A stretch of 64,000 nt of DNA. It comes from Dehalococcoidia bacterium (GTDB taxonomy: Bacteria; Chloroflexota; Dehalococcoidia; UBA2979). Made by a program: the position numbers and the translations under genes. The stretch's first letter is position 1. Every line of letters starts with the position of its first letter. The stretch covers positions 32,001-96,000 of the forward strand of contig CAXXDN010000001.1 of assembly GCA_963667465.2 (NCBI GenBank), in the 5' to 3' direction. Positions 3,602-54,328 of the stretch are shown in pieces. Below the pieces are notes generated by a model. It was given only the letters and a program-made list of their open reading frames with translations, made no database searches and was not told where the DNA came from.

Positions 3602-3640
3602 CCCTCTCACCCTAACCCTCTCCCGCCGGGGGAGAGGGGA
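3602..3640. repeat. REP-like palindromic element (ccctcacc-n-ccctctccc-loop-gggagaggg family)
   Basis: ctcaccctaaccctctcccgccgggggagagggg hairpin; related copies at about 5296, 5361, 5483, 45084 and 49712. Confidence 0.75.
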
Positions 3641-4098
3641 TCGGAAAGGGTCGCGCGAGCCGGGTCTCCACCTGCTACAGCACCAGCTGCTACAGCACCA
3701 GCTGCTACAGCACCAGGCGCTGATCCGGCGCTGGAGTTGGGTCCGACGATGGCATGCACGCCCTCATCCTCAATGAGGCGGCGAGCCTCCTCGGCAGGGT
3801 TGAGGGTGTCGCCTTCCGCGATTTCCACCTGTTGCCCGAACACGCCGCCGGCCTCGTTGACGTGCTTGATGGCCAGTTTGAAGGAGCGCAGGCGGTCGAG
3901 GGCCGTCTCCGTTTGCGCCTCGCTGTTCACCAGCAGCGCGCCGATCTTGAGGGGCGCCCGCTCTTCGTCGCCGCAGGCTGCGAGGGTCCCGGCGCCGATG
4001 GCCAGGGCGGCGATCACGACCAGCAGCACGCCCCGCAGCGCGCCGCCGGGGCTGCGCCAGCCGTCCAGCATGTCCTGCCACGCTTCCAGGTTCATCAT
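3607..4098 (-). pseudogene. truncated branched-chain amino acid ABC substrate-binding lipoprotein
   Basis: Lipobox LAAC, LKIGALL, AIKHVNEAGGVFGQQVE, VHAIVGPNSS; homology stops after about 125 aa and the frame runs into a tandem repeat and a REP element. Confidence 0.75.
3672..3716. repeat. 15-bp tandem repeat x3 (ctgctacagcaccag)
   Basis: Three exact copies read directly. Confidence 0.9.
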
Positions 4099-5129: not shown

Positions 5130-5280
5130 GTGCTCCCTCGCCGTCGAGGGCGAGTTGCCCGAGGACGGGCTCGCCGCCTTCGGGGACGACGGCGACGACC
5201 TGCTGCTGGCGCTCGCGAACGGCAGCGCACGCTGTTCTCGTGGGCGGAGTTCATGACCGGGGAGCAGGACGAGCGGCCGC
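5130..5280 (+). pseudogene. C-terminal remnant of a large helicase-type gene of mobile origin
   Basis: Reads SLAVEGELPEDGLAAFGDDGDDLLLALA, then in a shifted frame QRTLFSWAEFM; no start codon; family recalled from memory. Confidence 0.4.
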
Positions 5281-5535
5281 GGCGCTGCGCGCCGACCCCT
5301 CACCCTCCGCCCTCTCCCGCAAGGGGCGAGGGGACCGGAGGCGTCCTCGGTCCTGTCCGGCCCCCTCTCCCGGGGGAGAGGGTTGGGGTGAGGGGGCGCG
5401 CCGGACCGGCGCCGATCTCGAAAGAGAGGTGCGCCGCCGCAGGCTCTTGGCCGGCGGGGGCGGGAGCGGCGCTGCGCGCCGACCCCTCACCCTCCGCGCT
5501 CTCTCGCAAGGAGAGAGGGGACCGGAGGCGTCCTC
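5281..5535. repeat. REP-like cluster: two ~68-bp direct repeats (5281-5348, 5468-5535) with an inverted copy between them (5361-5396)
   Basis: ggcgctgcgcgccgacccctcaccctccgc...gcaagg...gaggggaccggaggcgtcctc present twice. Confidence 0.85.
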
Positions 5536-8600: not shown

Positions 8601-9870
8601 CGGTGTCCTCGCCCAAGGCCTCGAGCACCCGGTTCCAGCGCGATTGATGCGTGGCGGCGCTGTGCTCGTCGCGCCAGCCCGTGACCTCGCTCACGGTGAC
8701 GGCGTCGGCTGGCAGGGTGCAATCAGTGGACGTCTCCTGCGCTTCTGGTCCGGGATCAGGCGTCGGGGTCGGCGTTGGCGTTGGTGTTGGCGTCGGGGTC
8801 GGCAGCGGATAATCGTCGTCGGAGACGGCAGCCGTGGCCGCGCCCGCGCTCGACGACACGGTGTAGCCCGTGCCGCTCGCGAGCGTCGCCGTGACCGAGC
8901 CGTCGGGCTCGTCGGTTGCGTCGCCGCTCGTGCTGATCGTAAAGGACCTGGAGCCACTCGTGGGAATGGTGACGCTCTGTGAGCCGGTCGTGACGCCAAA
9001 GGCTCCCGTTGCGGACACCGTGACGCTCACGGTCAGCGCGGAGTGCGGCGTCGGGCTGGCGGTGATCGTGAAGCTGGCGTTGGCGCCTTCGATGACATCG
9101 CCGCCGGAGGCGATGCTCAGTTCGGGCACATCATCGTCCGCGACGGCAACCGTGGCCGCGCCCGAACTTGACGACACGGTGTAGCCCGTACCCGCGCCCA
9201 GCGTCGCCGTGACCGAGCCGTCGGGCTCGTCGGCGCTGTCGTTGGTCGTGGAGACGGTGAGCGTGTAACTGCCGGAGGCCGGGATCGTCACTGTCTGCGA
9301 ACCGGCCTGGGCGAAGTCGCCGCTCTGGGAGACGGTGACACTCACAGCGAGGTCGGAGGCGGGTGCGGGGCTGGCGGTGACGGTGAAGCTGGCGGCGGCG
9401 CCCTCGGTGACGCCCGAGCCTGCGGCGATGCTGATCTCAGGAGTGGGAGCAGGCGTGGGAGTCGGCGTGGGCGTCGGCGTTGGCGTCGGTGTGGGAGTCG
9501 GGGCGGCCTCGGCCGCCGCTTCGATGCACTCCAGCGCCTGCCGGATGGGCTTCCACCCTGACCAGCGCGCTTCCCGCGTGCGGGCCTCGGCGGCGGAGAA
9601 CGGCGTCAACTGCGAGTCCTCGACATCGCCGAAGGCGATCAGCACGCGCTTCCAGTTCAAGCCGGTGCGGCCCTGGGCCGTGTTGATGTCGTAGTAGAAG
9701 CGAACTCGCTCGAGCAGGGCGTCGCTCACGCAGCTCGACGCGTCCTGGGCGTTGGCGGTGGTCGTGGATGAAGCGCTGAACAGCAGCGTCGCCGCCATGA
9801 TCGCGAGCAGCGCGAGGCCAAACAGCGGCGCCCGCCAGCGGCGCGCTCTCATCGGGCGTCGCGCCCACAA
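5626..9870 (-). CDS. large secreted/surface repeat protein with Calx-beta/Ig-like domains (putative adhesin); true start probably 9904 across a poly-C tract
   Basis: Signal peptide ending ANA-Q, three EG...F-T-v-T-A-s-P...DEPDGS-v-T...ATV.V.DDD modules, three W-x-R-V-L-x-A-x-G-type helical modules, (PT)n and (TD)n linkers. Confidence 0.85.
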   Translation of the reverse strand: MWARRPMRARRWRAPLFGLALLAIMAATLLFSASSTTTANAQDASSCVSDALLERVRFYYDINTAQGRTGLNWKRVLIAFGDVEDSQLTPFSAAEARTREARWSGWKPIRQALECIEAAAEAAPTPTPTPTPTPTPTPTPAPTPEISIAAGSGVTEGAAASFTVTASPAPASDLAVSVTVSQSGDFAQAGSQTVTIPASGSYTLTVSTTNDSADEPDGSVTATLGAGTGYTVSSSSGAATVAVADDDVPELSIASGGDVIEGANASFTITASPTPHSALTVSVTVSATGAFGVTTGSQSVTIPTSGSRSFTISTSGDATDEPDGSVTATLASGTGYTVSSSAGAATAAVSDDDYPLPTPTPTPTPTPTPTPDPGPEAQETSTDCTLPADAVTVSEVTGWRDEHSAATHQSRWNRVLEALGEDTGSGETAMTAAQAQGIKNQINNSRWDRTARTLEALEQCEGSTDGDSQQQDTDTDTDTDTDTDTTDTQTPPTPSNTNSLPEFSVVGGPTITEGGAATFTVTATPAPTGTNALTFVAVVTQDGRFTSSDGQYVDSIGLSGSTTITVPTLGDDRDEPDGSLTLTLQADPRDNPRFTVSATQGAATVVVSDDDAPGSGTPVTYTEFWAPYQDLIAKVEAYRNHELYGQFSSHTDLYDSVLLALGQDVAKQSIQPLSASKARSLAAPRSTDIWDEIAPALDWIFHNGPPPAPLPTLDNPLPTSINMSTNIEPTQLTLTDYFGHETGAELTFTVTLDNPIATISQWDELISIENTGTGTATMTVEASDGTNSISASSSVEAACNPGSRLSSDGTFCVAAQTALAYNGSIGPHPSSPGGPADNFKPEIRLEEGTSNTISVRVWVNRNDVGSTCRMRGYLTIEPQTGGATIPTGGIARTVGNTTSPHASAQGWTDANCSNGFLTNSNRNYREARVTYNLPAADSMPGTTLNGAKLVYHDMGASGTSVVGTYDILLIHFRDSIATITTTMSTGDGTSHSTSNGDFTITEGTSGTATITLSGEHLTGYLAPRMEDIRKGGRASAARMHLEHGHAVYWQPSVCAFNKEANAGANQDDRTATCEVSWNWQSDGSNGSQGTVKLVWHETDGAGWDLPDVHTTEVSTITMSDTGPSPGNPNGWVASDTRSVDNYWVEAAGGQKTANTSLGNVTTITEGDKFELKVVAGTRGGTPRVALEVRTATNDDGTQWSSWKNLDQEVGHRSLAIREESEWRLYTGGFVGCFDPGGYNCFGGPGRWANRGNSQEFFDLTFVSHDDNFVGQPERYYQFRVKHSTNTTRANPILKVVEDDAVVFSLHPQQENGRLRVYLAKKVWTDVTIQLDTDSVSSAWNNWAVVFDAEATNDLDRFGSRIIDQDCDGGATDIRVWARILVGQHSGVPEHLDYYDGTTNKNDDRKGEYVLVNCD

Positions 9871-22183: not shown

Positions 22184-22222
22184 CGGGGCGCTCCGCGTCT
22201 GGGCCTGCTGCGGACGATCAAC

Positions 22223-23185
22223 TTACCCCAGCCGCCGCAGCTTCTTGATGCTGCGCAGCTCCCGAGGCGGGTCGAGGTGGCGGCCGCGGATCGTGTAGGA
22301 GACCTCGGCGACGTAGATGTCACCCCGCGAGTCTACCGCCATCCCGTGCGGCGCGATGAAGCGCCCCGCTTCCTCGCCCTCCTCCGGGTCGCCGAGGCGC
22401 GCGAGCAGCTCTCCCTCGCGACTGTAGATGCTGACGCGGTGCCCGACGCCGGCGGCGCCGGCCATGAGCGCGACGCCGTTCAGCTCGCCGACGTAGAGCA
22501 GGCCGTCGCCGCCCATCGTGATGCCGCAGGGGCGGTGGATGTTGTTCCACATCGCGAGCTGCCCGCCCTCGCGGTCGAAGACCTGGATCCGATGGCTCTC
22601 GCGGTCCGCGACGTAGATCCGATCCGCTTCGTCGATCGCGAGGTTGTGCGGGACCATGAACTGCCCGGCATCGACGCCTGGCGAGCCCCACGACAGCTCC
22701 AGCTCGCCCTCGGCGGAGTAGCGGTGGACGCGCGCGTTGCCGTACCCGTCGCTGATGAAGATCGAGCCGTCGTGCGAGGACACGACGGCGTCCGTGGGCC
22801 GGTTGAACGGTTCGCCGCTGTGCCGCTCCGAGGACACTCCCGGCTCCCCGATGGTGAGCAGGAGCTCGCCCTCACGCGTCCACTTCGTGATCGTGTGCGA
22901 GCCGTCGTCGGCGCAGTAGAGGAAGCCATCGGGCCCGACGCCGACGGCGTGCGTACGATCCGTGAACACGCCCTCGCCGAAGCTGCGCAGGACGTTCCCG
23001 CCGGGATCGAAGACGATCAGCGGGTTCGAGGTGTTCCTCGTCAGCACGTAGACGCGGTCCTCGGCGTCGACTGCGACGCCGGCGCACTCGTGGAGGGTCA
23101 TGCCGTCGGGCAGCTGCTCCCACGTCGCCAGCGCCTCGTAGCGGAACGTCCCGGCCCCAAATTCAACCGACCCTGCGCTGACCAT
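22223..23185 (-). CDS. NHL-repeat beta-propeller protein (peptidyl-hydroxyglycine lyase-like)
   Basis: FNRPTD, SDGYGNARVH, GQFMVPHNL, YVADRESHRIQVF, FIAPHGMAVD. Confidence 0.9.
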   Translation of the reverse strand: MVSAGSVEFGAGTFRYEALATWEQLPDGMTLHECAGVAVDAEDRVYVLTRNTSNPLIVFDPGGNVLRSFGEGVFTDRTHAVGVGPDGFLYCADDGSHTITKWTREGELLLTIGEPGVSSERHSGEPFNRPTDAVVSSHDGSIFISDGYGNARVHRYSAEGELELSWGSPGVDAGQFMVPHNLAIDEADRIYVADRESHRIQVFDREGGQLAMWNNIHRPCGITMGGDGLLYVGELNGVALMAGAAGVGHRVSIYSREGELLARLGDPEEGEEAGRFIAPHGMAVDSRGDIYVAEVSYTIRGRHLDPPRELRSIKKLRRLG

Positions 23186-25807: not shown

Positions 25808-25828
25808 CAGCCTGCCGCCCCTTACCTA

Positions 25829-26023
25829 CCCCAGCCGCCGCAGCTTCTTGATGCTGCGCAGTTCGCGAGGCGGGTCGAGGTGGCGGCCGCGGATCGTGCA
25901 CGCCGCCTCCGCGACGTAGCTGTCGCCCCGCGAGTCGACGGCGATGCCGTGCGGGGCGATGAAGCGGCCCACCTCCTCGCCCTCCTCGGGGTCGCCGAGG
26001 CGCGCGAGCAGCTCGCCCTCGCG
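25829..26023 (-). pseudogene. diverged duplicate of the 3' ~195 bp of the NHL gene (22227-22420)
   Basis: Colinear match from ccccagccgccgcagcttcttgatgctgcgcag to cgcgcgagcagctc.ccctcgcg with scattered substitutions. Confidence 0.85.
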
Positions 26024-26073: not shown

Positions 26074-28002
<1,929 letters not shown>

Positions 28003-28188
28003 CGGACGCGGTCTCCGCACGGCGACCGCAGATCGAGGGCGAGAGGCGGTGGCCGACAGGACAGCGGGGGACACCGTGCGGGACATCGTTGTGGACAGCG
28101 GAACTGGCGAAGATCCAGATTTCACTTGTGACAATTGATAAGTTGGAGGACACTGGAGTGGACAACATGCGGGACATCGACTGATAAC

Positions 28189-28400
28189 GGCGGCTCGACC
28201 TCGTGCGCTGGACGATAGCCCACCCGATCCCCCTGGCCGGGCTTCGCGCTCGGGAACACCCCGCTGCCTCGCTCTACGCCAGCACCACGAACAAGACGCT
28301 GACGCGCGACATCAACTACCTGCGGGACCACAACTTCGTGCGGATCGAGGACGGTCTACTGCGCGCCAACGTCGGCTTGATGAACCAGTTCACGACCTAA
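28189..28400 (+). pseudogene. C-terminal winged-helix remnant, Fic-family-like
   Basis: LYASTTNKTLTRDINYL...V...G..RAN..LM..F; preceded by in-frame stops and AT-richer DNA. Confidence 0.45.
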
Positions 28401-28488
28401 TGCCGACTGAGCGCGCGACCTTCGACGCATCGACAACCGGCCGGGGCGCCTGGCCCGGCTTGATGCGGAACCGTGAGCGAGGCGATCG

Positions 28489-29304: not shown

Positions 29305-30399
29305 GTGCAGGCCGTCGTGTTCCATGAGCTGGGCAAGCCACCGGCCATCGAGGAGGTCGATCTCGCGCCGCCGAAAGCGCGCGAGGTGCGTGTGAAGGTC
29401 GTCGCCAGCGGGCTCTGCCACTCCGACATCCACCGCCTGCACGGCCACCTGCCCTCGGCCACGCCGATGGTGATGGGCCACGAGGGCTCCGGCGTCGTCG
29501 AGGAGGTCGGCGACGCGGTGACCGACGTCGCGCCCGGCGATCACGTCGTGATCAGCTTCGGTCCCTACTGTGGCGGCTGCGGCGCCTGCAGCGACGGGCG
29601 CTTCAGCAACTGCGAGCGCAAGCTGGCCAACGCCCAGCGCGGCAACCTGTTGGACGGCACCAGCCGGCTCAGCCTCGACGGGCAGCGGATCAGCCACCAG
29701 TCCTCGGTCTCCTCGTTCGCGCAGGAGGCGGTGGTGCATGAGTCGAGCGCAGTGAAGGTGCGCGAGGACGCGCCGCTGGAAACGATCGCGCTGCTCGGCT
29801 GCGGCGCCACCTCGGGCCTCGCGCCGGTCTTCAACGACGCGCAGGTCGAGGCCGGCAGCACCGTCGCCGTGATCGGCGTCGGCGGGCTCGGGCTGAATAC
29901 CGTGCAGGCCTCGGCGCTCTCGGGCGCGCTGACGATCATCGCGATCGACCTGCTCGACCACCGCCTCGAGCAGGCGCGCGAGTTCGGCGCGACGCACGCG
30001 ATCAACGCCGGGGAGCAGGACCCGATCGCCGCGGTGCGGCGCATCAGCGGCGGCGGCGTGGACTACGCCTTCGAGGTGATCGGCCTGCCCGAAACGGTGC
30101 TGCAGGCGATCCAGATGGTGCGACCCGGTGGCGAGACGATCGTCATCGGCGCGCTCTCCGGCGACGCCGTGGTCTCGATTCCGTGGATGGGCATGATGCG
30201 CGGTCCGCTGCGGCGCAGCGGCTTCGGCGCCTCGCGCCCGAACGTCGACATCCCGCGCTACGTGGACCTCTACATGGCCGGCAAGCTGCGCTTCGACGAG
30301 CTGGTGACGGGCCGCTACCCGCTGAGCCGCTTCAACGACGCCGTCGCGGTGATGGAGCGCGGCGAGGGCGTGCGCAACATCATCCACCCCAACGGGTAG
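29305..30399 (+). CDS. Zn-dependent alcohol dehydrogenase
   Basis: GLCHSD, GHEG, CGGCGAC...C, GVGGLG. Confidence 0.94.
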   Translation: MQAVVFHELGKPPAIEEVDLAPPKAREVRVKVVASGLCHSDIHRLHGHLPSATPMVMGHEGSGVVEEVGDAVTDVAPGDHVVISFGPYCGGCGACSDGRFSNCERKLANAQRGNLLDGTSRLSLDGQRISHQSSVSSFAQEAVVHESSAVKVREDAPLETIALLGCGATSGLAPVFNDAQVEAGSTVAVIGVGGLGLNTVQASALSGALTIIAIDLLDHRLEQAREFGATHAINAGEQDPIAAVRRISGGGVDYAFEVIGLPETVLQAIQMVRPGGETIVIGALSGDAVVSIPWMGMMRGPLRRSGFGASRPNVDIPRYVDLYMAGKLRFDELVTGRYPLSRFNDAVAVMERGEGVRNIIHPNG

Positions 30400-30414
30400 C
30401 GGGCCGCGCAGCGG

Positions 30415-30590
30415 TGACCGATCAGCAGTGGGACGAGGCGCCAGACAGCCAGGAAACAGCACCTGACCAGAAACCCGAGACGGGAAGGAGCCTGGCGCGC
30501 GCCATCCGCGCCCGGTTCGCGCCCCTCGGCGGTATCGCCCTGAAGCTCCCGCCCCGCGGACCGATGCGCGAGCCACCCCGCTTCGACTGA
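30415..30590 (+). CDS. small protein resembling the FitA/plasmid-stabilisation antitoxin C-terminus
   Basis: LARAIRARFAPLGG..L.LPPR.PMREPP.FD; paralogous to 35430-35684. Confidence 0.55.
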
Positions 30591-30616
30591 ACGCGCCGTC
30601 CGGTCCCACCTCCCAC

Positions 30617-30653
30617 CCCCACCCCTCGCCTGCAACCGGCGCTCTGGTAGGCT
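30617..30653 (+). repeat. 37-bp direct repeat, copy 1 (contains TGGTAGGCT extended -10-like motif)
   Basis: ccccacccctcgcctgcaaccggcgctctggtaggct, identical at 31524-31560. Confidence 0.92.
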
Positions 30654-30662
30654 TTCGGTGAG

Positions 30663-31475
30663 ATGAATCGGTACAAGCAGCGTAGGGTGGGCCGTCGCCT
30701 GCTCGCGGACGTGTTCGCCGACGAGAAGAAGTCTCATCTCCGGTTCATCCACTACTCATGCGAGAGCTTCTACGATCGCTCGGATGGCTCCTCCCCGAGG
30801 ATCACGTCAATCGCTGTCCGGCACCATGCATCAGGTCAGGCACGCTCGTTCTCAATCCACCAAGTGGCCGAGCGGTGCGGCTCTTTGGATGACATCGAGA
30901 AGATTGAGCAGAAATACGACGACTTCGAGCGAACTATGCTCACGGAATTCTTCAAGTACGCGGAGAAGCAACAGGACGCGAAGTGGATTCACTGGAATAT
31001 GCGCGATGCCAACTACGGATTCGCGGCCATCGAGCACCGGCTTCGAGTCCTCGGCGGTGAGCCCTTCGCGGTTCGGGACTCAGACAAGGTCGACCTGTCG
31101 ATTCTGCTATCAGACATCTACGGCCGGGGTCTTGCTCCCCACCCACGCCTCGCGAAACTGGTCGACTTGAACGGACTGACCAAGCGCGACTTTATGACGG
31201 GTAGGGAGGAAGCCCGCGCCTTCGAGGACAAGGAGTACGTGAAGCTGCATCAATCAACGCTGAGAAAGGTCGACTTGATCGCCCGGTTAGCCTCACTCGC
31301 CGCTGCCGGCGAACTCAAGACAGCCTCAACCTGGCGTGAGCAGTACGGTATGAGCATCGCGGGTGGAATCGACACTGCGATGCAAAGCACGACCGGAAAG
31401 GTCTTCTCAGTGATCGGGTGGGGCGTGGGACTGGTTGGGGCAGCTCTCACAATCTGGGCAGTCCTTCTCGACTAA
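30663..31475 (+). CDS. hypothetical protein, possible divergent 3'-5' exonuclease-like fold with C-terminal TM helix
   Basis: 270-aa ORF, AT-richer codons than neighbours, hydrophobic tail VFSVIGWGVGLVGAALTIWAVLL. Confidence 0.8.
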   Translation: MNRYKQRRVGRRLLADVFADEKKSHLRFIHYSCESFYDRSDGSSPRITSIAVRHHASGQARSFSIHQVAERCGSLDDIEKIEQKYDDFERTMLTEFFKYAEKQQDAKWIHWNMRDANYGFAAIEHRLRVLGGEPFAVRDSDKVDLSILLSDIYGRGLAPHPRLAKLVDLNGLTKRDFMTGREEARAFEDKEYVKLHQSTLRKVDLIARLASLAAAGELKTASTWREQYGMSIAGGIDTAMQSTTGKVFSVIGWGVGLVGAALTIWAVLLD

Positions 31476-31523
31476 CGTATCACCCGGTCGCTGCGCGTGA
31501 AGCGCCGACTCGTGACTCACCCA

Positions 31524-31560
31524 CCCCACCCCTCGCCTGCAACCGGCGCTCTGGTAGGCT
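31524..31560 (+). repeat. 37-bp direct repeat, copy 2
   Basis: Identical to 30617-30653; lies upstream of the dehydratase gene. Confidence 0.92.
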
Positions 31561-31633
31561 GGCGTCCCGCGACGCGGCTACCGAGGCATGCGAGCGTGAT
31601 ACCAGGCAACACGATGCACGGGAGAGGCAACAG

Positions 31634-32929
31634 ATGACGACCACCGAGCGGCGCTACCCGAAGATCACCGACGAGGGCGTGACCGCGATGCGCGCGCGCG
31701 TCGGGATCCCCGCGAAGCGCGACGACCGCGGAAAGTACACCCAGATCAACGCCGACGCCGCGCGCGGCTACTCGATCGCCACCGGCGACCTCAACCCGCT
31801 CTACGTCGACGCCAACCACGCGCGCGCCAGCCGCTGGGGCGACACTGTCGCGCCTCCCGGCATCCTGCTCGCCACCGGCGAGCCGGAGGGCCGCGACATC
31901 ACTCCCGAGGAGCGCGAGGCCGGGCGCGGCGGCGCCCTGCCCGGCGTCCACGGCATGTTCGCCGGCCGCGATTTCGAGTGGTACGCGCCCATGCTCGCCG
32001 GCGACACCATCCACAAGGTCACCTACGAGGCCGGCTTCTACGAGAAGGACGGCAAGTTCACCGGCAGCCGCCAGATCCTCCAGATGGTCGAGACGCTGTT
32101 CCGCAACCAGCGCCACGAGGTCGTCGCCAAGATGCTCGGCTGGCGCATGCGCACCGAGCGCGACGCGGCCCGCGAGCGCAAGTCCGTCTTCCGCGAGTCC
32201 CGCGTCTGGAGCGACGAAGAGCTGGCAGAGATCGACGAGGCCTACGCGCGCGAGACCTGGCGCGGGCCGGAGCCCCGCTACTGGGAGGACGTGCAGATCG
32301 GCGACAACCTCGGCGAGATGGTGCGCGGCCCCTTCCGCGTCACCGACGGCGTGGCCTGGGAGATGGGCTGGGGCGGCCCCTACGCCCGCACCGGCAAGTC
32401 CGACCACGAGTTCCGCTCGCGCCACCCCGGCGCCTACACGCAGGACCCGCGAGGCGTCTGGGACGTCGTCGAGCGCGTCCACTGGGACGACGACTTCGCG
32501 CGCGAGATCGGCGTGCCCGCCGCCTACGACTACGGCGCGCAGCGCGTCGGCTGGACCTGCAACTTCCTCACCAACTGGATGGGTGACGACGCCTGGCTGA
32601 AGCGCATGTGGGTCCAGATCCGCAAGTTCAACATCCTCGGCGACCTCCAGACCTTCACCGGCGAGGTGATCGACAAGCGCATCGAGAACGGCGAGTACCA
32701 GGTCGTCTGCGACTTCCAGGCGATCAACCAGCTGAACGAGATCACCACGCCGGGCCAGGCAATCATCCTGCTGCCCTCGCGCGAGGCGGGGAACCCGCAA
32801 CTGCCGACCGGCAACCAGCCGCCCTACCCCACCTGGGAGGGCGACAAGAAGGTCGTGCCCGTCGGTCCGTCGCCGTTCCAGCCGGTCTCTTCGACGCACG
32901 GCTTCCGCATGGTCGGGCTGCAGGAGTAG
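31634..32929 (+). CDS. double hot-dog (MaoC/FAS1-like) acyl dehydratase
   Basis: GDLNPLY...A..SRWG..VAPP, RYWEDVQIGD, RVHWD..FAR.IGVP.AYDYG; GGAG RBS. Confidence 0.87.
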   Translation: MTTTERRYPKITDEGVTAMRARVGIPAKRDDRGKYTQINADAARGYSIATGDLNPLYVDANHARASRWGDTVAPPGILLATGEPEGRDITPEEREAGRGGALPGVHGMFAGRDFEWYAPMLAGDTIHKVTYEAGFYEKDGKFTGSRQILQMVETLFRNQRHEVVAKMLGWRMRTERDAARERKSVFRESRVWSDEELAEIDEAYARETWRGPEPRYWEDVQIGDNLGEMVRGPFRVTDGVAWEMGWGGPYARTGKSDHEFRSRHPGAYTQDPRGVWDVVERVHWDDDFAREIGVPAAYDYGAQRVGWTCNFLTNWMGDDAWLKRMWVQIRKFNILGDLQTFTGEVIDKRIENGEYQVVCDFQAINQLNEITTPGQAIILLPSREAGNPQLPTGNQPPYPTWEGDKKVVPVGPSPFQPVSSTHGFRMVGLQE

Positions 32930-32939
32930 GACCCCGGCC

Positions 32940-35420
32940 GTGAGCGAGCAGCTCGTCCCGGCGCCCGCCCTCCTCGAGGGCATCACGGCCGTCGAGTACG
33001 GCGAGAGCGCGGCGATCGGCTTCGCTGGTCGGCTACTCGCCGACCTCGGCGCGACGGTCACCAAGATCGAGCCACCCGCGGGCGACCGCACCCGCTTCGA
33101 GGGCTACACCTCGCCCGGCGCGGACGCCTCTGCCCTCTTCGCTTACGCCAACGCCGGCAAGCGGAGCGTCGTGCTCGACGACACAACGGCCGAGGGGCGC
33201 GACGAGCTGGCGAGGCTGCTCGCGAGCGCCGAGATCGTGATCGACGCACACGCGGCGAGCCACTGGCGCGAGCTCGGGCTGGACTTCGACGCGCTGCCGG
33301 GTAGCGGGCGTTGCCGCCTCGCGGTCTCGCTGACGCCGTTCGGGCGCTTCGGCGAACGCGCGGAGTGGGCGGCGACACACCTCACCAGCCACCACACGGG
33401 CGGTGAGTCCTACGCCTTCCCCGGCGGCCTCAGCTGGCTGCGCTACCCGGACCGCGAGCCGGTCCGCGTGCCCGGCCGCGTCGCCGAGTTCGACGCCGGC
33501 ACCGCAGCCGGCCTCACGATGCTCGGTTGGCTCGCCGGAGACCGCGCGGCGGCGGTGGTTGAGCTGAGCTGGCAGGAAGCGGCGATCGCACTGAGCCGCC
33601 AGGACATCGTGAAGTGGCCCAACGACGGCTTCATCGACAACCGCGCGACGCGCCAGATCCCCGTGCTCGGCCTCGTCGAGTGCCGCGACGGCTGGGTGGA
33701 GATCTACCCGTCCGAGCAGCACATGTGGGAGCGCCTCGTGCTCGCCGTCGGCGACCCGGAGTGGGCGCACACGCTCGGCGAGACAGCCGAGGACCGCATC
33801 AAGAACACAGGCGAGCTCAACGACCTCTTCGCCTTCTGGCTCAAGGAGCGCACCAAGTCCGAGGTCTACGAGGCCCTCCGCAAGGAGGGCGTGCCCGGCG
33901 GGCCCGTGCGCACAATGCAGGACATCTACGAGTCCGATCAGCTGCGCTTCCGCGACTTCTTCCACGGCGTCGCCTACCCCGACGGCGAGCTGCAGGACGT
34001 GCCCGGCCACCCCTACATCGTGCGCGAGGCGCACGGCGGCGCGGACGACCGCGCCTGGCGGCCGGGACCGCGTGGGGCCGCCGCGCCGTCGCTGGGCGCG
34101 GACACCGAGGAGACGCTCGCGGCCCTCGACAGCGAACGCGCTCCGGTGGTCCGCTCCGGCGCACCCGCGCCCGAGCAGACCGAGACCCCGGCGCGGCCGA
34201 TCGACTGGCTCAAGGGCAGGCGCGTCGTCGACCTCACCTGGTACCAGGCGGGACCCTACGGAAACATGATCCTCGCCTCACTCGGCGCCGAGGTCGTGAA
34301 GGTCGAGAGCCTCGGCCGCACCGACCCGTTCCGCAAGGCGCGGCGCCTCAAGACTGTCATGCTCGACGAGTTGAAGCACGGCGACTGGGTCGACACCGGC
34401 TACCGCTTCAACGAGGTCAACATGGGCAAGCAGAGCGTCCAGGTGGACCTCGGGCACGAGCGCGGCCGCGAGATCGTGCGCGAGCTGGTCGCCGGCGCCG
34501 ACGTGATCATCGAGAGCTTCCGGCCGGGCGCGGTGGCGCGGCTCGGGCTCGGCTTCGACCGGCTGATCGAGGTTAACCCGCGCATCGTCATGCTCTCGCT
34601 CTCGGCCAACGGCGAGACCGGGCCGGACGGCCACATGCCCGGCTACGCCGCCGTCTTCGGCGCGACCTCCGGCATGTCCGGCCTCAGCGGCTACGACGTG
34701 AGCACCCCCAGCGAGTACCGCGGCCCGCTCGACCAGCGCGTCGGCACCTCGGTCGCCCTCGCCGCGATCGTCGGGCTGATGGCGCGCGACCACTCGGACA
34801 GCGCCGTGCTGATCGACTTCGCCGCCTCCGAGGTGGGGACCACGCTGGTCGGCGACCAGCTGCTGGAGTGGCAGCTGCGCGGGACCGTCGACGAGCCGCT
34901 GGGCAACCATCACCCGGTGCTCGCGCCGCACAACTCGTACGAGTGCGAGGACAGCGACCGTCCCGGCTGGATCGTGCTCGCCGTCGAGCGCGACGCGCAG
35001 TGGCGGCGGCTCGCCGGGCACATCGGCGACTGGCGGCTGGACCCTGCCTGGGACCAGCAGGCGCGCAAGGCGCAGGAGCCCGCGATCGACGCGGCGATCG
35101 CCGACTGGGCGCGCGGCCGCGACCGCCACGAACTGGTCGCCGAGCTGCAGTCGCTCGGCGTTGCGGCCTCGCCGAGCATGAACGTGCGCGACCTCTACGA
35201 GGATTCGCACATCCGCCAGCGCGGCATGTGGACGCGCGTCGACCACGCCCGCCTCGGCAACATCGAGGTGCTCTCGATGCCCTGGCTGGTCAACGGCGCC
35301 CGCCCCGTGATGCACCCCGCGCCGGCGCTCGGCCAGCACAACGACTACGTCTACCGCGAGATCCTCGGCCTCACCCCCGAGGAGCAGGCCGCCCTCGCCG
35401 CCTCCGGGGTGGCGTACTAG
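32940..35420 (+). CDS. family III CoA-transferase, two fused domains
   Basis: Two CaiB-like units (LADLGATVTKIEPPAGD/NAGKRS; LGAEVVKVE/NMGKQS/ESFRPG), each ending AP.LG. Confidence 0.92.
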   Translation: MSEQLVPAPALLEGITAVEYGESAAIGFAGRLLADLGATVTKIEPPAGDRTRFEGYTSPGADASALFAYANAGKRSVVLDDTTAEGRDELARLLASAEIVIDAHAASHWRELGLDFDALPGSGRCRLAVSLTPFGRFGERAEWAATHLTSHHTGGESYAFPGGLSWLRYPDREPVRVPGRVAEFDAGTAAGLTMLGWLAGDRAAAVVELSWQEAAIALSRQDIVKWPNDGFIDNRATRQIPVLGLVECRDGWVEIYPSEQHMWERLVLAVGDPEWAHTLGETAEDRIKNTGELNDLFAFWLKERTKSEVYEALRKEGVPGGPVRTMQDIYESDQLRFRDFFHGVAYPDGELQDVPGHPYIVREAHGGADDRAWRPGPRGAAAPSLGADTEETLAALDSERAPVVRSGAPAPEQTETPARPIDWLKGRRVVDLTWYQAGPYGNMILASLGAEVVKVESLGRTDPFRKARRLKTVMLDELKHGDWVDTGYRFNEVNMGKQSVQVDLGHERGREIVRELVAGADVIIESFRPGAVARLGLGFDRLIEVNPRIVMLSLSANGETGPDGHMPGYAAVFGATSGMSGLSGYDVSTPSEYRGPLDQRVGTSVALAAIVGLMARDHSDSAVLIDFAASEVGTTLVGDQLLEWQLRGTVDEPLGNHHPVLAPHNSYECEDSDRPGWIVLAVERDAQWRRLAGHIGDWRLDPAWDQQARKAQEPAIDAAIADWARGRDRHELVAELQSLGVAASPSMNVRDLYEDSHIRQRGMWTRVDHARLGNIEVLSMPWLVNGARPVMHPAPALGQHNDYVYREILGLTPEEQAALAASGVAY

Positions 35421-35429: not shown

Positions 35430-35684
35430 ATGGCAAACGCACCGCGCGACGAAGACGGCTACCTGCGCGCTGTCAGCGAGACGCTGACCGAGTGGAACTC
35501 GCCCGAGGACGAGGACGCCTGGCCTGACGAAGCGCCGGATACGCAGAGTGCTGCGCCGGAGCAGGAACCTCCGCCGCGCGCGGATCTCGCGCGCTCGATT
35601 CGCGACCGGTCTAAGTCCCTGGGTGGCACCGAACTGGACCTGCCGAACCGTGAACCGAAGTGCAAGCCTCCACAGCCCGACTGA
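35430..35684 (+). CDS. small acidic protein made of antitoxin C-terminal-like segments
   Basis: YLRAVSETLTEWNSPEDEDAW (AbrB-type tail) followed by LARSIRDR...LGG.ELDLP.REP (FitA-type tail). Confidence 0.55.
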   Translation: MANAPRDEDGYLRAVSETLTEWNSPEDEDAWPDEAPDTQSAAPEQEPPPRADLARSIRDRSKSLGGTELDLPNREPKCKPPQPD

Positions 35685-35700
35685 TCGGGCAGCGGCGACC

Positions 35701-35727
35701 ACGCTCGATCCCAACGTGGTCTCGGGG
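35701..35727 (+). pseudogene. possible VapC/PIN toxin N-terminal vestige
   Basis: Translates TLDPNVVSG, resembling the PIN start xLDTNVVSE, just after the antitoxin-like ORF. Confidence 0.35.
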
Positions 35728-35853
35728 AGCCACGAGAGCGTTCAGGACGATTGGAGGCCCTTCAGCCCGGAGAGCCCGCCTTGACACTGCCCTACAGGCT
35801 GCTCGGGCGTTCGAAGATTGCGGGTCGTTACGTCTGCTCGCTACCATGAGCCA

Positions 35854-36429
35854 GTGAGAATCGCTTGGACCTCCGGCATTGTCGGCATAGTGACTGCAGC
35901 CGTTAGCGGGCTTGCCGAGTATGTGCTTACGGGTGGAACGGCGACTTGGATTCCGTTGACGTCCGGCATGATAGGTGCCGTACTTGCACTCGCAGCAGGC
36001 ACCTTAGTTGCACCGCGTATTGGTGCCAGACCAGTAGAGCCTTACAGCCCTGTCGTTCAGGGAGAGCACTATACCCGGCGCACAGTTTCGGAGTTGGTGC
36101 GCGCGCTAGAAGGCAAGACATCAGTGGAGGGTGAGCACATTAGCGCGCTCCATGTCGATACGCGAATCGTGGTCAGCGGCAGCGTGAGTGACGTCAGAAG
36201 AAGCTATAGCACTCCGTCTAGCTGCACCGTCTCCATACGCGTTCCCCTAGGAGTGCTGAAGTTCTCCTGCTTCGCCCAAGCCGAATTTGACCAAGACCGG
36301 TCCGTCGGCGCACAAACGCTACAGGTGGGCGACCCAGTCCTGATCGATGGGCGGATCTCGTCGATCCATGGGCAGAGCGTTTTCTTGGAAGACTCTCGGC
36401 TCCTTCCGACGAATCAGCCCCAAGGGTAG
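35854..36429 (+). CDS. hypothetical protein, two TM helices plus possible OB-fold domain
   Basis: AT-richer ORF; two hydrophobic helices, then IVVSGSVSDV...LQVGDPVLIDGRI...L.D; TACCAT 6 nt before GTG suggests a leaderless start. Confidence 0.7.
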   Translation: MRIAWTSGIVGIVTAAVSGLAEYVLTGGTATWIPLTSGMIGAVLALAAGTLVAPRIGARPVEPYSPVVQGEHYTRRTVSELVRALEGKTSVEGEHISALHVDTRIVVSGSVSDVRRSYSTPSSCTVSIRVPLGVLKFSCFAQAEFDQDRSVGAQTLQVGDPVLIDGRISSIHGQSVFLEDSRLLPTNQPQG

Positions 36430-36472
36430 GTTCACTCCGCCCGTAGATGGCACGTGTTTGTCCTGATGGGTA

Positions 36473-37436
36473 TCAGCGCCCCGTCACATCCGGAGCACTC
36501 CGGATGCGCTCGACGTAGTCGGCGAGGCCGGCTTCGATGGTGTAGCGGGGGGCGAAGCCGAGCTCCTCGCGGATCAGGGTGTTGTCCATGAGCTGGCCGA
36601 CGTGGGCCGGGCGCTCGCTGACCTCGATGCGGGCGTCGGGGAGGAGACGGCGCAACTCGGCGGTGTAGTCGCCGATCGGGCGCTGCTCGGCGCGCATGTT
36701 GTAGGCACGGTGCGGCGGGTTCACGGCCATCAGCGCCAGCCACCACGCCTCGGCGGCGTCGGCGGCGTAGCACCAGTCCGCCAGCTGCGAGCCGGGAGGC
36801 ATGGTGATCGGCTCGCCGCGCACCGCCAGCTCGGCCAGCGCCATGTAGTGCGGCAGATCGCGCACGTGCACCAGCCCCGAGGCGCACGATCCTCGCCAGG
36901 CCCGGCCCAGCCCGAACACCGAGCAGGGCCGCAGGCTGACGATCTCCATGCCCGTGCTCGTCGTTGTAGACGTCGGCCAGGTGCTCGCTCCACAGCTTGC
37001 ACGCGCCGTAGAGGCTGTCCGGCCGCTTCGGGTCGTCCTCGCGCAGCGAGCTGGACTCGTGCGGACCGTAGACGGCGAGCGAGCTGGCGTTGACGACGCG
37101 CACGATGCCGTGCAGCCGCGCCGTCTCGAAGACGTTCGCGGTACCCATCGTCTGCACCCGCGCGTAGGGCACGATCTTCTCCGGCTCCGGCCCGCCCACG
37201 CCGAAGGCGAGATGCACCACCCGCTCGACGCGATGGCGGTCCAGCGCCGCCAGCAGTTCCTGCGGCTCCAGCACGTCGCCCTCGACAACCGTGACGCGGC
37301 CCTCGATGCCCTCGAGCTTGCGCAGGTCCGGGTAGCGGTCGAAGAGCACGACGTCCGCGACGCCCTTCTCAAGCAGCAGGTGGCGCGCGCGGCAGGAGCC
37401 GAGGAACCCGGTCCCGCCCGTGATCATGATCGACAT
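36473..37436 (-). pseudogene. NAD-dependent epimerase/dehydratase, frameshifted near 36952
   Basis: TGGTGFLG and YGACK in one frame, MEIVSLRPCSVFG...ELGFAPRY in another; one extra G in CAC-GGG-C-ATG. Confidence 0.8.
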
Positions 37437-40957: not shown

Positions 40958-41581
40958 CTACCCGATCGAGACGCCCCAGCGATCGACCGAGGCGACCTCG
41001 GCGAGCGGCTTGCGGGTGACCGGGCCGAAGTTGCCCTTCGGGTAGCCGAGCGGCACGGCGTAGACGATCTGCAGCTCCTCGGGAATCCCGAACAGCTCCT
41101 TCGCGCGCTCGTCGACGACGGCGTGCAGCGTCGTGATCGTGCCGCCGATGCCGATCGCGCGGGCGGCGAGCAGCAGGTTCTGCACCGCGGGAATCACCGA
41201 TGCCAGCGGGCCCGCTCCCTGCCCGGTCGCGCAGAGCAGCACGATCACCGGTGCCTCGGCGAACTCGTCTGCGAGCCGCATCGCCGAGACCAGCGTCCCG
41301 TTCGAGCGGTCGATGTCCTCGGGGCCGTGGATGCCCTGGTCGGCGCGCTTCGCCCACCACGCCTCGCGGTAGAGCGCGCCGAGCTGCCGCCGCAGCTTCG
41401 GGTCGCGCACCACGAGGAAGTGCCAGGGCTGGGCGTTGCCGCCGTTTGGCGCCTGGATCGCCGCCGTCAGGATGTCGCGCAGATCGTCCTCGGGGATCGC
41501 GTCGGGCTTGACGCGGCGGATCGCCCGCAGCGAGAAGATCGCCTCGCCGAGGCTGATCGGGAATCGTTCGCTCGGATCCAT
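40958..41581 (-). CDS. nitroreductase family protein
   Basis: RAIRR, APNGGNAQPWHF, QNLLLAARAIG, LGYP. Confidence 0.92.
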   Translation of the reverse strand: MDPSERFPISLGEAIFSLRAIRRVKPDAIPEDDLRDILTAAIQAPNGGNAQPWHFLVVRDPKLRRQLGALYREAWWAKRADQGIHGPEDIDRSNGTLVSAMRLADEFAEAPVIVLLCATGQGAGPLASVIPAVQNLLLAARAIGIGGTITTLHAVVDERAKELFGIPEELQIVYAVPLGYPKGNFGPVTRKPLAEVASVDRWGVSIG

Positions 41582-41584
41582 CGT

Positions 41585-41662
41585 GGCCTCCTGTGTCGTC
41601 GCGGCCTCCTGTGTCGTCGCGGCCTCCTGTGTCGTCGCGGCCTCCTGTGTCGTCACGGCCTC
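41585..41662. repeat. 18-bp tandem repeat x4.3 containing the nitroreductase RBS
   Basis: ggcctcctgtgtcgtcgc units; the - strand carries AGGAGG in each. Confidence 0.92.
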
Positions 41663-42329
41663 AAACCCCGCCCAGCGTTGGCGCATCCAGCCCAGCGAAC
41701 GCCGCAATCGAGGGGAGGCGCACGTCCGGCGGCGCGCCCTCGGCGGCCTCGAGGGCGTACGGGCCTTGCTCCACCAGCACCGTAGTCACCACGTCGCCGA
41801 GGGCGGACTTCACGGCGGCGAGGATGCGCGGCTTGTCGTCGATCAGCGCGTAGTGGCGCGCCGGGTAGCGCGCGCGGATCGCCTCCAGCTCGTGCTCCTT
41901 GTGCTCGAAGATCAGCACCCGGCCTTCGAAGGCAGCATCGAGGCCGGAGGTGCGGATCTTGTGGCGCTGGTAGCGCTCGTCGCCGTCCGAGGCGATCACC
42001 GGCAGGCCGAGACCGCCCGCGTGCGCGACGGCCGCGAGCGCGCCGGGGAACAGGCAGCCCGCGTAGTCGAAGCCCCACACCGCAGCGGCGACCTGCTCGC
42101 CGAGGGCCGCAGCGCCCGCCTCGCGGCCGGAGCGCTCGATCGTCTGCGGCAGGTCGGCGTAGCCGAGCTCGGAGCGGACCGCCTCGTACGCCTGCCAGAA
42201 GCGCCGCGCGCCCTCAACTCCGGCGACCGCCTGGATCCTCGCGTCCAGTCCGGCCTTCAGCGCCGCACCGTCGATCAGCGTGTGGTCGACGTCGAAGAGC
42301 AGGACGAGGTCCGACGAGGACGCAGCCAC
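41661..42329 (-). CDS. HAD family hydrolase
   Basis: FDVDHTL, SDGD, HKE, IDDK. Confidence 0.88.
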   Translation of the reverse strand: MAASSSDLVLLFDVDHTLIDGAALKAGLDARIQAVAGVEGARRFWQAYEAVRSELGYADLPQTIERSGREAGAAALGEQVAAAVWGFDYAGCLFPGALAAVAHAGGLGLPVIASDGDERYQRHKIRTSGLDAAFEGRVLIFEHKEHELEAIRARYPARHYALIDDKPRILAAVKSALGDVVTTVLVEQGPYALEAAEGAPPDVRLPSIAAFAGLDAPTLGGV

Positions 42330-42360
42330 CGGGGACTCCCCTCGCGCCGCCCGCCGCGCG

Positions 42361-43614
42361 TCAGGCCGCGAGCGTGTTCTTGTGCGCGCGGCCGCCCTGC
42401 ATGATCACCCGCAGCCGCTCCGTGTCCTGCAGCAGCGTGATGTCCTCGAGCGGATCGCCGTCGACGACGATCAGGTCGGCGAGCTTGCCTGCCTCGAGGG
42501 TTCCGATCTCGTCCGCCATGTGGATGCACTCGGAGGCGGTCTTCGTCGTCGCGACGATCGACTCCATGGGCGTCATGCCGTGCTGCGTCATCAGCTCCAG
42601 TTCCCACGCGTTCGTGCCGTGGACGCCGACTCCCGCATCGGTGCCCATCGCGATCCGCACGCCCGCCTCGTGGGCCGCGCGGAAGCTCTCCGCGTTCGCG
42701 TCGATCACCTCGCAGGCCTTGCGCAGCGACTGCGGCAGCACGGACTCCGGGGTCGCCTCTTCGCGCAGCACGATGCTGCGAGGCGCGTGAATCGTCGGGA
42801 CCAGGAAGGCGCCACGCTCGATCATCATTGCGATCGCCTCGTCGTCGAGGTAGAAGCCGTGCTCGATCGACTCGACGCCGGCGCGGACGGCGTTCTTGAT
42901 GCCCGCGGTCGCCTGCGCGTGCGCCATGCAGGTCTTTCCGACCATGCGCGCCTCGTAGACCATCACGGCGATCTCTTCCTCGGTGAACTGCGGCGAGCCC
43001 GGCTCGTCCGAGGGTGACATGACGCCGCCGGTGGCGTGCAGCTTGATGAAGTCCGCGCCGAGGCGGAGCACGCCGCGCACGGTCTTGCGCACCTCGTCCG
43101 GGCCGTCGCAGATCGTCTCGATCCACTCCGGACCCCACTGCCGCCAGAAGCGCACGCCGCTCGGCAGCACCCCGTCGCCGTGCCCACCCGTCTGCGAGAG
43201 CGCCCCAACGGCGATCTTCATGCGCGGCCCCGGAATCAGCCCGCGCTCGATCGCGAGCTTGAAGCCGGCCGGCGATCCGGACGCCTCGCGCACCGCGGTG
43301 AACCCCGCGTCGAGGGTGGCGAGCGCGTTCTGCGCCGCCTCGAACGTCGCGAGGGTCGGCGGCGTCAGCGCTCGCTGCTGCATCGACTTCCACGAGCTGT
43401 AGAAGTGCACGTGCGAGTCGATCAGCCCCGGCAGCAGCGTCGCTCCCGAGGCGTCGATCACCTCCGCGTCCTGCGGCAGCGTGTCGAGGCGGCCGGCGCA
43501 CGCGATTCGGCCGTCCTCGATCACCAGGCTCGCGCCCGGGACGGGGTCGGCGCCCGTACCATCGATCAGCGTGACGCCGGTGATGGCGAGCGTGCCGGCA
43601 GCGGGGGCAGTCAC
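42361..43614 (-). CDS. amidohydrolase family protein (prolidase-like)
   Basis: PGLIDSHVH, IKLHATGG, AHA, SIEHG, MGTDAG, GKLAD. Confidence 0.93.
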   Translation of the reverse strand: MTAPAAGTLAITGVTLIDGTGADPVPGASLVIEDGRIACAGRLDTLPQDAEVIDASGATLLPGLIDSHVHFYSSWKSMQQRALTPPTLATFEAAQNALATLDAGFTAVREASGSPAGFKLAIERGLIPGPRMKIAVGALSQTGGHGDGVLPSGVRFWRQWGPEWIETICDGPDEVRKTVRGVLRLGADFIKLHATGGVMSPSDEPGSPQFTEEEIAVMVYEARMVGKTCMAHAQATAGIKNAVRAGVESIEHGFYLDDEAIAMMIERGAFLVPTIHAPRSIVLREEATPESVLPQSLRKACEVIDANAESFRAAHEAGVRIAMGTDAGVGVHGTNAWELELMTQHGMTPMESIVATTKTASECIHMADEIGTLEAGKLADLIVVDGDPLEDITLLQDTERLRVIMQGGRAHKNTLAA

Positions 43615-54113: not shown

Positions 54114-54328
54114 GTGCGAACTCCTCCCCAGCGATAGACCGTTGGCCCGGATGGGTGACCTGCGCGCCTAGTCTGGATTGCCCGCGAGGCTAGCATCACC
54201 CTGTACCCCTCGCGAAACGGGCGGCTCGTGCAGTCGATGCCGACAGCGTGGCACCGCCTGGCTCACGTCCAGACCAAGACTAGCATCCCGCGAACGCGCA
54301 CCTATTGTCGCGGTGAACCGACCCGTCC

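Follow-up and report, generated by a model that had tools for sequence, protein, structure and literature searches.

A lone foreign gene between two copies of a conserved host block in front of a Dehalococcoidia dehydratase operon: a probable recent insertion with target duplication

How does a single gene of foreign appearance come to lie, intact, between two identical copies of a host sequence and in front of an operon that keeps a copy of its own? The question is raised by a stretch of 64,000 nucleotides from a Dehalococcoidia bacterium (Chloroflexota; assembly GCA_963667465.2, contig CAXXDN010000001.1, positions 32,001 to 96,000), hereafter the window, whose coordinates are used below unless a locus of another genome is named. 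A preliminary description, made from the letters of the window alone, had pointed to identical 37-mers 907 bp apart and had read the gene between them as a single-gene cassette that inserted at, and duplicated, a host promoter. The pair of repeats is indeed exact: the 37-mer CCCCACCCCTCGCCTGCAACCGGCGCTCTGGTAGGCT is present as copy 1 and copy 2 (coordinates in Table 1) with 100% identity and a start-to-start distance of 907 nt. When both strands of the 64-kb window are searched and as many as 3 mismatches are tolerated, nothing matches besides these two copies, and none of 100 dinucleotide-preserving shuffles gave any match.

The repeats enclose an 870-bp segment of lower GC content that carries one intact open reading frame (ORF) of 813 nt, here called P0001, and has only 9 nt to the left and 48 nt to the right of that gene to spare. 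The GC content is 0.55–0.60 inside the segment as against 0.70–0.73 in its flanks (a separate determination gave 0.59 and 0.70), and GC at third codon positions (GC3) is 0.73 in the acquired ORF as against ∼0.9 in neighbouring genes. Both copies of the 37-mer have TGGTAGGCT, which resembles an extended −10 element, as their end. The ATG of the acquired ORF (30663) starts 9 nt past copy 1, and the intervening TTCGGTGAG offers no Shine-Dalgarno sequence at a workable distance; the ATG of the dehydratase gene (31634) is found 73 nt past the end of copy 2. On these points the preliminary description agrees with the data: an AT-richer foreign gene (which belongs, as described below, to a family of phages and plasmids and has a closest relative only 78% identical to it) follows copy 1 at 9 nt without a ribosome-binding site (RBS), and copy 2 precedes genes that Pfam identifies as a dehydratase and a CoA-transferase.

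The history of the locus was read from related genomes. A search of a genome collection with the dehydratase protein gave 78 loci, and ten loci (L002–L009, L018 and L020), all from metagenome-assembled Dehalococcoidia/Chloroflexota genomes that serve as species representatives, are orthologous to that of the window, with dehydratases of 94–99% amino acid identity. In all ten the block is single and stands at the same distance (∼73 nt) before the dehydratase ATG, so that each constitutes an empty site of the kind that the preliminary description had proposed to look for. The exact 37-mer is present in L002 and an exact 29-nt core of it in L002, L008 and L018, with 1–2 core differences in the remaining relatives. 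When up to 8 mismatches are allowed, this core is found once per orthologous locus and nowhere else in 988,600 nt of 86 loci. The 37-mer is therefore not a dispersed repeat: it has two copies in the window, and its core is confined, among the loci fetched, to the ten orthologous ones. A dispersed repeat and a lack of empty sites in relatives had both been named beforehand as findings that would speak against the interpretation, and on both counts the outcome favours it. No insertion between block and dehydratase is present in any of the ten relatives, and a tblastn search with P0001 against all fetched loci returned matches in plasmid and phage loci only, with no trace in the chromosomal loci of the relatives.

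Comparison with L018, the nearest relative at ∼94–96% nucleotide identity to the window, defines the junctions. Homology runs to 30653 and is found again from 31516; on L018 the BLAST alignments of the two flanks share 44 nt (5884–5927), which indicates a target duplication of 37 exact and perhaps ∼7 imperfect bases (30610–30616 and 31516–31523). L018 is also the nearest relative in 27 of 30 bins of 200 alignment columns (all 10 on the left, 17 of the 20 on the right); the bins in which another relative is ahead by 1–2 points lie in the right flank, starting at 31718, 31918 and 34303, and in the bins that adjoin the two junctions L018 is nearest, at 96% in each. The insert thus brought no divergent flank with it, and the import of a flank from a divergent donor was rejected on that ground; taken together with the empty sites, it points to a recent, lineage-specific insertion. 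We also considered whether the 48-nt tail of the segment is a diverged copy of the native upstream region, which would have implied a longer and older duplication or a related donor, and found this unsupported, since 109 of 2000 shuffles reach the same score with the window's own upstream region. Against the upstream regions of the relatives the similarity of the tail is non-significant for most, the best being L003 with 59 of 2000 shuffles (uncorrected). Two smaller features of the junctions, a 6-bp inverted repeat at the insert ends (GGTGAG 3 nt inside the left end and CTCACC 2 nt inside the right end) and a possible microhomology at the right junction in a C-rich tract (CTCACCCA as against native CTCCCAC), appear too weak to weigh.

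We therefore regard a recent foreign insertion with duplication of its target as very probable. As judged from the alignments, the insertion point lies directly after the −10-like element, and 37 bp (perhaps 44) of upstream host sequence were duplicated; copy 2 keeps the native 73-nt distance to the operon, and copy 1 now stands 9 nt from a new ATG. The simplest reading would be a gain on the window's own branch, which at the distance of L018 would come near to a within-species polymorphism. Thus, of the earlier proposal of a single-gene cassette inserted at a host block and duplicating it, the insertion with duplication stands, on the evidence of the empty sites, while the word cassette, which implies a dedicated mobile unit, was not borne out. 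For the complete statement, which joins the insertion to the promoter reading and the function discussed below and leaves out any specific mechanism, our confidence is moderate.

What kind of sequence was duplicated? In an alignment of the ten relatives with both window copies, 29 of the 37 block positions are invariant, and conservation runs on downstream of the block through the 73-nt leader to the RBS GGGAGAGG. The element TGGTAGGCT fits the pattern TGn + TAnnnT and is conserved in 10/10 relatives. The motif class to which it belongs, TGNTANNNT, has 11 occurrences on both strands of the window. Ten of them fall in non-coding sequence, where 3.25 are expected from base composition (a ∼3-fold excess in the ∼14% of the window to which a rough gene map assigns no coding sequence; the block copies themselves account for two of the ten), and 1 falls in coding sequence, where 19 are expected. 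A structured RNA or tRNA-like target was rejected, as a search of 30300–31800 at E up to 1 matched no Rfam family, and neither tRNA nor tmRNA genes were found in the window. Because the block is conserved in ten species and TGNTANNNT is enriched in non-coding sequence, and in view of the negative RNA searches, we take it to be probably an extended −10 promoter, from which the new gene would be read as a leaderless or near-leaderless mRNA.

Under this reading transcription would start ∼7 nt past the element, at 30659–30662, and leave the new gene a leader of 1–4 nt. The gene, having lost a leader and an RBS of its own, would be read from copy 1, and the operon would be read from copy 2 plus read-through from upstream, since no terminator is evident after the acquired gene (no terminator-like site was found there, and the energy of the tail hairpin resembles that of shuffled sequences, with a non-significant z of −0.21). 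The phrog profile of the P0001 family aligns from residue 1, so the ATG at 30663 is the normal start of the family. Two results count against the promoter reading. A strict two-hexamer sigma-70 scan found no promoter, and no other ORF of at least 100 codons in the window has TGNTANNNT 4–12 nt before its start, so that routine use of leaderless messages in this host is not supported. A further extended −10-like sequence, TGATACGTT, lies on the opposite strand (31474–31482), where it overlaps the stop codon of P0001, and could be an antisense promoter or a chance occurrence.

The acquired protein belongs to a large and unnamed family. P0001 matches phrog_8766 (function unknown) with an E value of 6.4e-70, its residues 1–256 aligning to profile positions 1–250 of 262, and it has no sequence match in Pfam, NCBIfam or PDB. 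Of 7,026 candidates in a large protein collection, 3,117 are relatives with E values of at most 0.001, and the family, with its >3,000 relatives, extends across phyla. The named relatives are all labelled ‘hypothetical’. The closest of all relatives are P0002 (78% identical) and P0003 (67%); looking up the clusters of the nearest ones brought no names, a protein atlas returned unnamed clusters and distant PolB-exo/RNase_H_2 look-alikes at 0.78, and a literature search by two accessions and the phrog identifier found no paper on the family.

The AlphaFold model of P0001 (AF2; pLDDT 91.7, pTM 0.85) was more informative. Foldseek matched it to PolB exonuclease domains with a probability of 1.00 and to RNase T with 0.99 (E ∼4e-4, TMq 0.34–0.49), and viral RNase H-like/exonuclease models match it as well. 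In a 54-member alignment three motifs are invariant or nearly so (HYSCESFY at residues 30–37, HWNMRD at 110–115 and LHQSTLRKVD at 195–204), E34, D144, E183 and H196 are conserved in 54/54 and D115 and D204 in 52/54 members, and 46 of the 54 have a C-terminal hydrophobic helix. P0001 thus resembles the DEDD 3′–5′ exonucleases (RNase T, DnaQ and the exonuclease domain of PolB) in fold, and has conserved acidic and histidine residues as they do, and differs from them in the missing Pfam and PDB sequence matches, in the added C-terminal membrane helix and in the first aspartate of the DEDD set, whose expected position, as mapped by eye without superposition, is taken by the invariant Ser32 of the HYSCES motif. 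That serine makes nuclease activity of P0001 uncertain. From the model, these motifs and the contexts and fusions described below we read P0001 as a putative membrane-anchored, nuclease-like accessory protein of mobile elements.

The genomic contexts of other family members are consistent with such an association. In the Streptococcus prophage Javan528 the family gene is oriented like the integrase gene and lies in the module proximal to it, between genes for a cI-type repressor and an excisionase; this context is that of Javan528 itself, whose match row is near-identical to 16 further Streptococcus prophage records. Plasmid relatives adjoin toxin–antitoxin, HEPN and insertion sequence (IS) genes. 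One family gene follows directly after a tyrosine integrase gene, another directly after a serine recombinase gene, and one directly after a gene annotated as encoding a TrlF-family AAA-like ATPase. P0127 combines an RNase H-like domain that lacks the membrane helix with an AAA_15/AAA_21 ATPase of PtuA/AriA-like type, and in P0126 the whole protein is followed by serine-recombinase domains, which may reflect a true fusion or read-through of the gene call. Bracketing repeats are not a family-wide trait as far as the 8 other members examined (on plasmids and phages) are concerned, as none of these has a bracketing repeat >11 nt.

Presence in lysogeny modules and on plasmids, together with the one fusion to a Septu/PARIS-type ATPase, makes the family a candidate for a single-gene phage-defence or exclusion function. 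By this analogy P0001 may act in anti-phage defence or exclusion, a role that we consider the likeliest, though short of probable; a search of P0001 against PADLOC-DB 2.0, which returned 0 families at E up to 1, counts against it.

How, then, did the segment arrive? We favour, tentatively, a duplicative insertion that is blind to the target sequence and independent of any recombinase as the likeliest route, and regard the action of a site-recognising recombinase as less likely. The insertion would have been a one-off event, in which the segment was joined into a staggered break or gap with fill-in, or was copied in by a template switch during repair or replication. Selection would then keep it, because the newcomer would be expressed and the operon spared. 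The 37-bp repeats would subsequently let host recombination or slippage delete the insert exactly, and the excised circle could re-enter any genome that has the block. The empty sites look exactly like the predicted product of such an excision, and a precise repeat-mediated deletion would be indistinguishable from them. The preliminary description had found no integrase or transposase nearby, and no such domain was detected among the 54 window ORF translations scanned against Pfam. Dyad symmetry in the empty site of L018 is likewise unremarkable, its best arrangement pairing 9/16 arm positions, which 90% of 1000 random 70-mers from the window equal or better.

A scan of 1.05 Mb of sequence for exact direct repeats of at least 22 nt, 300–5000 nt apart, gave one case comparable to the window insert, a Fic insertion in L006. 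A 23-nt repeat (2309–2331 and 3736–3758 of that locus) encloses a 1,404-bp insert of lower GC content with an intact Fic gene (2507–3664), once more a lone gene of toxin type in intergenic sequence. The repeated sequence is native, comprising the surroundings of an ABC-F stop codon and the spacer before a YgjP-like gene. The loci L018, L002, L003 and L008 have one copy of it, on which the flank alignments overlap by 22–29 nt, and an imperfect extension of the duplication lies on the same side as at the window insert. Two targets and two duplication lengths are a poor fit to one site-specific recombinase or to a transposase of fixed stagger, and a better fit to a duplicative process that is blind to its target. 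Two repeats from the same scan, the 84-nt repeat of L039, which resembles a miniature inverted-repeat transposable element (MITE), and a repeat of L046 that resembles repetitive extragenic palindromic (REP) elements, were set aside as not comparable. On a more speculative note, it is conceivable, if improbable, that in this clade small genes of toxin or defence type enter intergenic DNA by a recombinase-independent process that copies 20–45 bp of the target. If that were true, flanking genes would never be broken and the newcomer might gain a ready promoter for leaderless expression, and the repeats would let host recombination excise and re-insert the unit, which would amount to a minimal mobile cassette without a mobility gene.

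Several points weigh against arrival without a recombinase. The source genome was sampled through the 64-kb window only. The Fic case is older and messier than the window insert and hence a weaker parallel: the Fic insert of L009 (1478–3040 of that locus), at 86% nucleotide identity, has no exact repeat, nor has a decayed Fic remnant in the window (27995–28479), which consists of the upstream region and the last ∼65 codons. Illegitimate recombination usually deletes or replaces DNA, and we know of no standard bacterial process that regularly makes target duplications of 23–44 bp. Exact direct repeats around an insert are, moreover, the classic signature of the attachment sites attL and attR. 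As described in the relevant passages of PMC3146451, a CcrB-like serine recombinase moves Dehalococcoides islands that are bounded by a 20-bp repeat of the ssrA end; 16 of the identified islands contain an integration module, which implies, within the account given there, that some of them are without it.

These last points lead to the reading in which the two repeats represent attL and attR and the insert is a minimal integrative cassette without a recombinase of its own, similar to a cis-mobilizable element (CIME) or a satellite of an integrative element. An integrase encoded elsewhere in the genome, or on a helper element, would insert and excise it in trans, and its attP would have carried a copy of the host promoter, much as elements directed at tRNA or ssrA genes bring along the end of that gene. 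Such a cassette would account for the exact flanking repeats and for empty sites equal to the excision product; its cargo family sits at the recombinase end of mobile elements (beside the tyrosine integrase and the serine recombinase, in the lysogeny module and in P0126); and the ssrA islands with their 20-bp target repeat supply a precedent from the same class, as far as the passages of PMC3146451 on them extend. We nevertheless judge it unlikely. No recombinase is encoded among the 54 ORFs scanned within the 64 kb, the site lacks dyad symmetry, and the insert has room, beyond its 9- and 48-nt flanks, for the gene alone. The gene appears to be a newcomer (GC3 0.73 as against ∼0.9), whereas the block belongs to the host and is specific to its clade, and no other cargo occupies this position in the ten relatives. 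A second and different site-specific system would also be needed for the Fic insertion in L006, which duplicates an unrelated 23-bp target.

The remaining alternatives seem to us far less plausible than an integrative cassette. The insertion might be ancestral, with recombination between the repeats having removed it cleanly from every relative sampled. Such deletion would leave exactly the single block observed, and loss does occur in this region, as indicated by the neighbouring Fic insertion, which is patchy (L006, L009 and the window remnant) and diverges like core genes (86% nucleotide identity). It would, however, require many independent losses, including one in L018 at ∼96% nucleotide identity; the two copies are identical at 37/37 positions while species differ at up to 5 block positions, the composition of the gene is not ameliorated, and tblastn with P0001 detected no remnant in the relatives. 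We accordingly consider an ancestral insertion very improbable, and the same holds for a transposon-like passenger (a mobile insertion cassette or MITE-like element) with short terminal inverted repeats (TIRs), a transposase supplied in trans and an unusually long duplication. A flanking target duplication is a hallmark of transposition, and GGTGAG and CTCACC near the ends could be taken for such repeats; however, an inverted repeat of 6 bp whose arms stand at somewhat unequal offsets is weak evidence, no transposase was found in the window ORFs scanned, and the insert has a single copy in the window and none in the relatives. Known bacterial transposases make fixed-length duplications of 2–15 bp, and the Fic case differs from the window insert both in its ends and in the length of its duplication (23 bp, or 23–29 as against 37–44 here). 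Least credible of all is an artefact of metagenome assembly, such as a chimeric join or collapsed repeat in the contig: the relatives are all metagenome-assembled and the window probably is too, but such an error would not be expected to place an intact, conserved, full-length ORF exactly between exact 37-mers, with outer flanks collinear with ten genomes. The contig that encodes P0001 is, moreover, listed with a length of 1.06 Mb. Duplicative insertion without a recombinase thus remains the reading that we prefer.

Among known systems, integron gene cassettes resemble the insert in being promoterless single ORFs with little flanking sequence, placed just behind a promoter already present at the site. 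Insertion into an integron leaves that promoter single, the tail shows no attC-like structured site (as judged from its hairpin, with a z of −0.21, and with no attC model run), and the window ORFs scanned contain no integrase domain that would indicate an intI/attI platform. Sites of the dif type are 28 bp long, bound by XerC and XerD, and near-palindromic. The Xer-dependent dif modules of Acinetobacter are, in the portions of PMC12907356 and PMC9947245 that concern them, comparable to the insert in being very small, often with one gene, and in relying on short recombination sites and host-encoded recombinases. The 37-mer differs from dif sites in having no such symmetry and in being a unique block and not a repeated site.

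Homology-facilitated illegitimate recombination usually replaces host DNA and, to our knowledge, is not known to produce a clean 37-bp duplication. It is similar to the preferred route in that it involves no dedicated recombinase, and it combines a homologous anchor at one end with an illegitimate join at the other, as outlined in the part of PMC3240628 devoted to it. The possible microhomology at the right junction recalls this process, from which the window insert differs in showing no imported homologous flank. The Dehalococcoides ssrA islands and cis-mobilizable elements, within the coverage that PMC3146451 gives them, share with the insert foreign DNA of lower GC content between exact host repeats, a restored target and, in some cases, the lack of an integrase. 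They are unlike it in being kilobases long, in using ssrA and tRNA 3′ ends, in forming arrays at one site and in having a known serine recombinase (PMC3146451, same passages), whereas the window insert is a single gene placed in a putative promoter, with no recombinase in 64 kb and no recurrence in the ten relatives. Phage morons and prophage exclusion genes, finally, are also single accessory genes of lower GC content that form independent transcription units, and relatives of P0001 occupy Streptococcus lysogeny modules; the window insert differs from them in its position in the leader of a chromosomal metabolic operon, where it would borrow a duplicated host promoter. The structure is a variant of an att-flanked cargo or a moron-like insertion and not demonstrably a new class, given a single event and one weaker parallel.

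The locus is an unusually clean natural case of the way in which one foreign gene can be added to a working operon without cost, and the empty sites in ten relatives define every junction to the base. If this anatomy recurs, as the Fic case hints, it would point to a hitherto overlooked way in which uncultured Chloroflexota gain genes, one that would need neither an integrase nor a transposase. The features of the locus are collected in Table 1.

Table 1. Features of the insertion locus and its immediate surroundings in the window
Feature	Position	Strand	Basis
Zinc-type alcohol dehydrogenase gene, native, conserved left neighbour	29305..30399	+	Pfam ADH_N/ADH_zinc_N; 88–98% nucleotide identity to 10 relatives
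C-terminal remnant of a FitA/VapB-like antitoxin; RHH domain and PIN toxin missing	30414..30590	+	Tail matches the C-terminus of an 81-residue FitA-like protein of L004
Possible imperfect extension of copy 1, C-rich tract	30610..30616	+	44-nt BLAST overlap on L018; low complexity, uncertain
Repeat copy 1, conserved host block, now before the acquired gene	30617..30653	+	Exact 37-mer; native upstream flank, alignment with L018 reaching 30653
TGGTAGGCT, extended −10-like element of copy 1	30645..30653	+	TGGTAG[G/T]CT conserved in 10/10 relatives
9-nt stretch, left end of the foreign segment, no usable RBS	30654..30662	+	L018 homology stops at 30653
Acquired gene P0001, 270 residues, phrog_8766 family, predicted RNase H-like/DEDD-exonuclease fold and C-terminal membrane helix	30663..31475	+	Profile match, AlphaFold model
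48-nt tail of the foreign segment, hairpin, no U tract	31476..31523	+	Fold not significant
Last 8 nt of the tail, possible imperfect extension of copy 2	31516..31523	+	BLAST overlap on L018
Repeat copy 2, block in its native place before the operon	31524..31560	+	Exact 37-mer; aligns with the single block of 10 relatives
Conserved 73-nt 5′ leader of the dehydratase gene, with RBS GGGAGAGG	31561..31633	+	Alignment of 10 relatives plus window
FAS1/MaoC-type dehydratase gene, native	31634..32929	+	Pfam; 94–99% amino acid identity to 10 orthologues
Family III CoA-transferase gene, native, two-domain	32940..35420	+	Pfam CoA_transf_3, E 1.3e-142

Upstream of the block the species differ completely. 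L004 has a complete pair of FitA-like antitoxin and PIN toxin there, as do L009 and L020 by nucleotide similarity; L002 has a PIN/PrlF-type (PrlF/MazE-like) pair on the other strand, as do L003 and L008 by nucleotide sequence; and the window, L005, L006, L007 and L018 retain a FitA-like C-terminal remnant only, the remnant ORF of the window being without a Pfam match. The stretch between the alcohol dehydrogenase gene and the block is thus a putative toxin–antitoxin hot spot, and the block is the first conserved sequence after it. A small ORF with the same FitA-like C-terminal motif is also found at 35430–35684 of the window. Behind it lies an insertion of ∼800 nt without counterpart in L018 (the region to 36473), which contains an ORF of low GC3 (∼35857–36429), whose product has an N-terminal hydrophobic segment and no Pfam or PADLOC match.

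Elsewhere in the window, a GmrSD-type type IV restriction gene (52365–54167, minus strand; GC3 0.70; PADLOC Orf5/HEC-06 models) looks, from its composition and annotation, like another foreign defence gene that stands alone. Two extended −10-like motifs of the form TGCTAG[T/C]CT (54187–54195 and 54277–54285), 90 nt apart, precede it. Neither this gene nor the window-specific insertions at 27995–28479 and 35546–36473 have a bracketing repeat >12 nt.

Three further repeats were observed in the window. A 200-nt direct repeat of 90% identity (22221–22420 and 25824–26023), which corresponds to the 3′ end of a minus-strand NHL-repeat gene, encloses ∼3.4 kb including an MMPL transporter gene; L018 has a FAD-oxidoreductase-like ORF (not Pfam-scanned) at this place instead. 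A 76-nt direct repeat of 92% identity (5273–5348 and 5460–5535), its copies 187 nt apart, is associated with no clear gene, and four tandem 18-nt units, TCGCGGCCTCCTGTGTCG, lie at 41581–41670, inside or beside an ORF on the minus strand (41661–42404). Outside the window, the 84-nt element of L039, an unrelated Dehalococcoidia metagenome-assembled genome, has the TIRs GGTTCTCTTGC...GCAAGAGAACC and is present in three copies (6456–6539, 8365–8448 and 8579–8662 of that locus).

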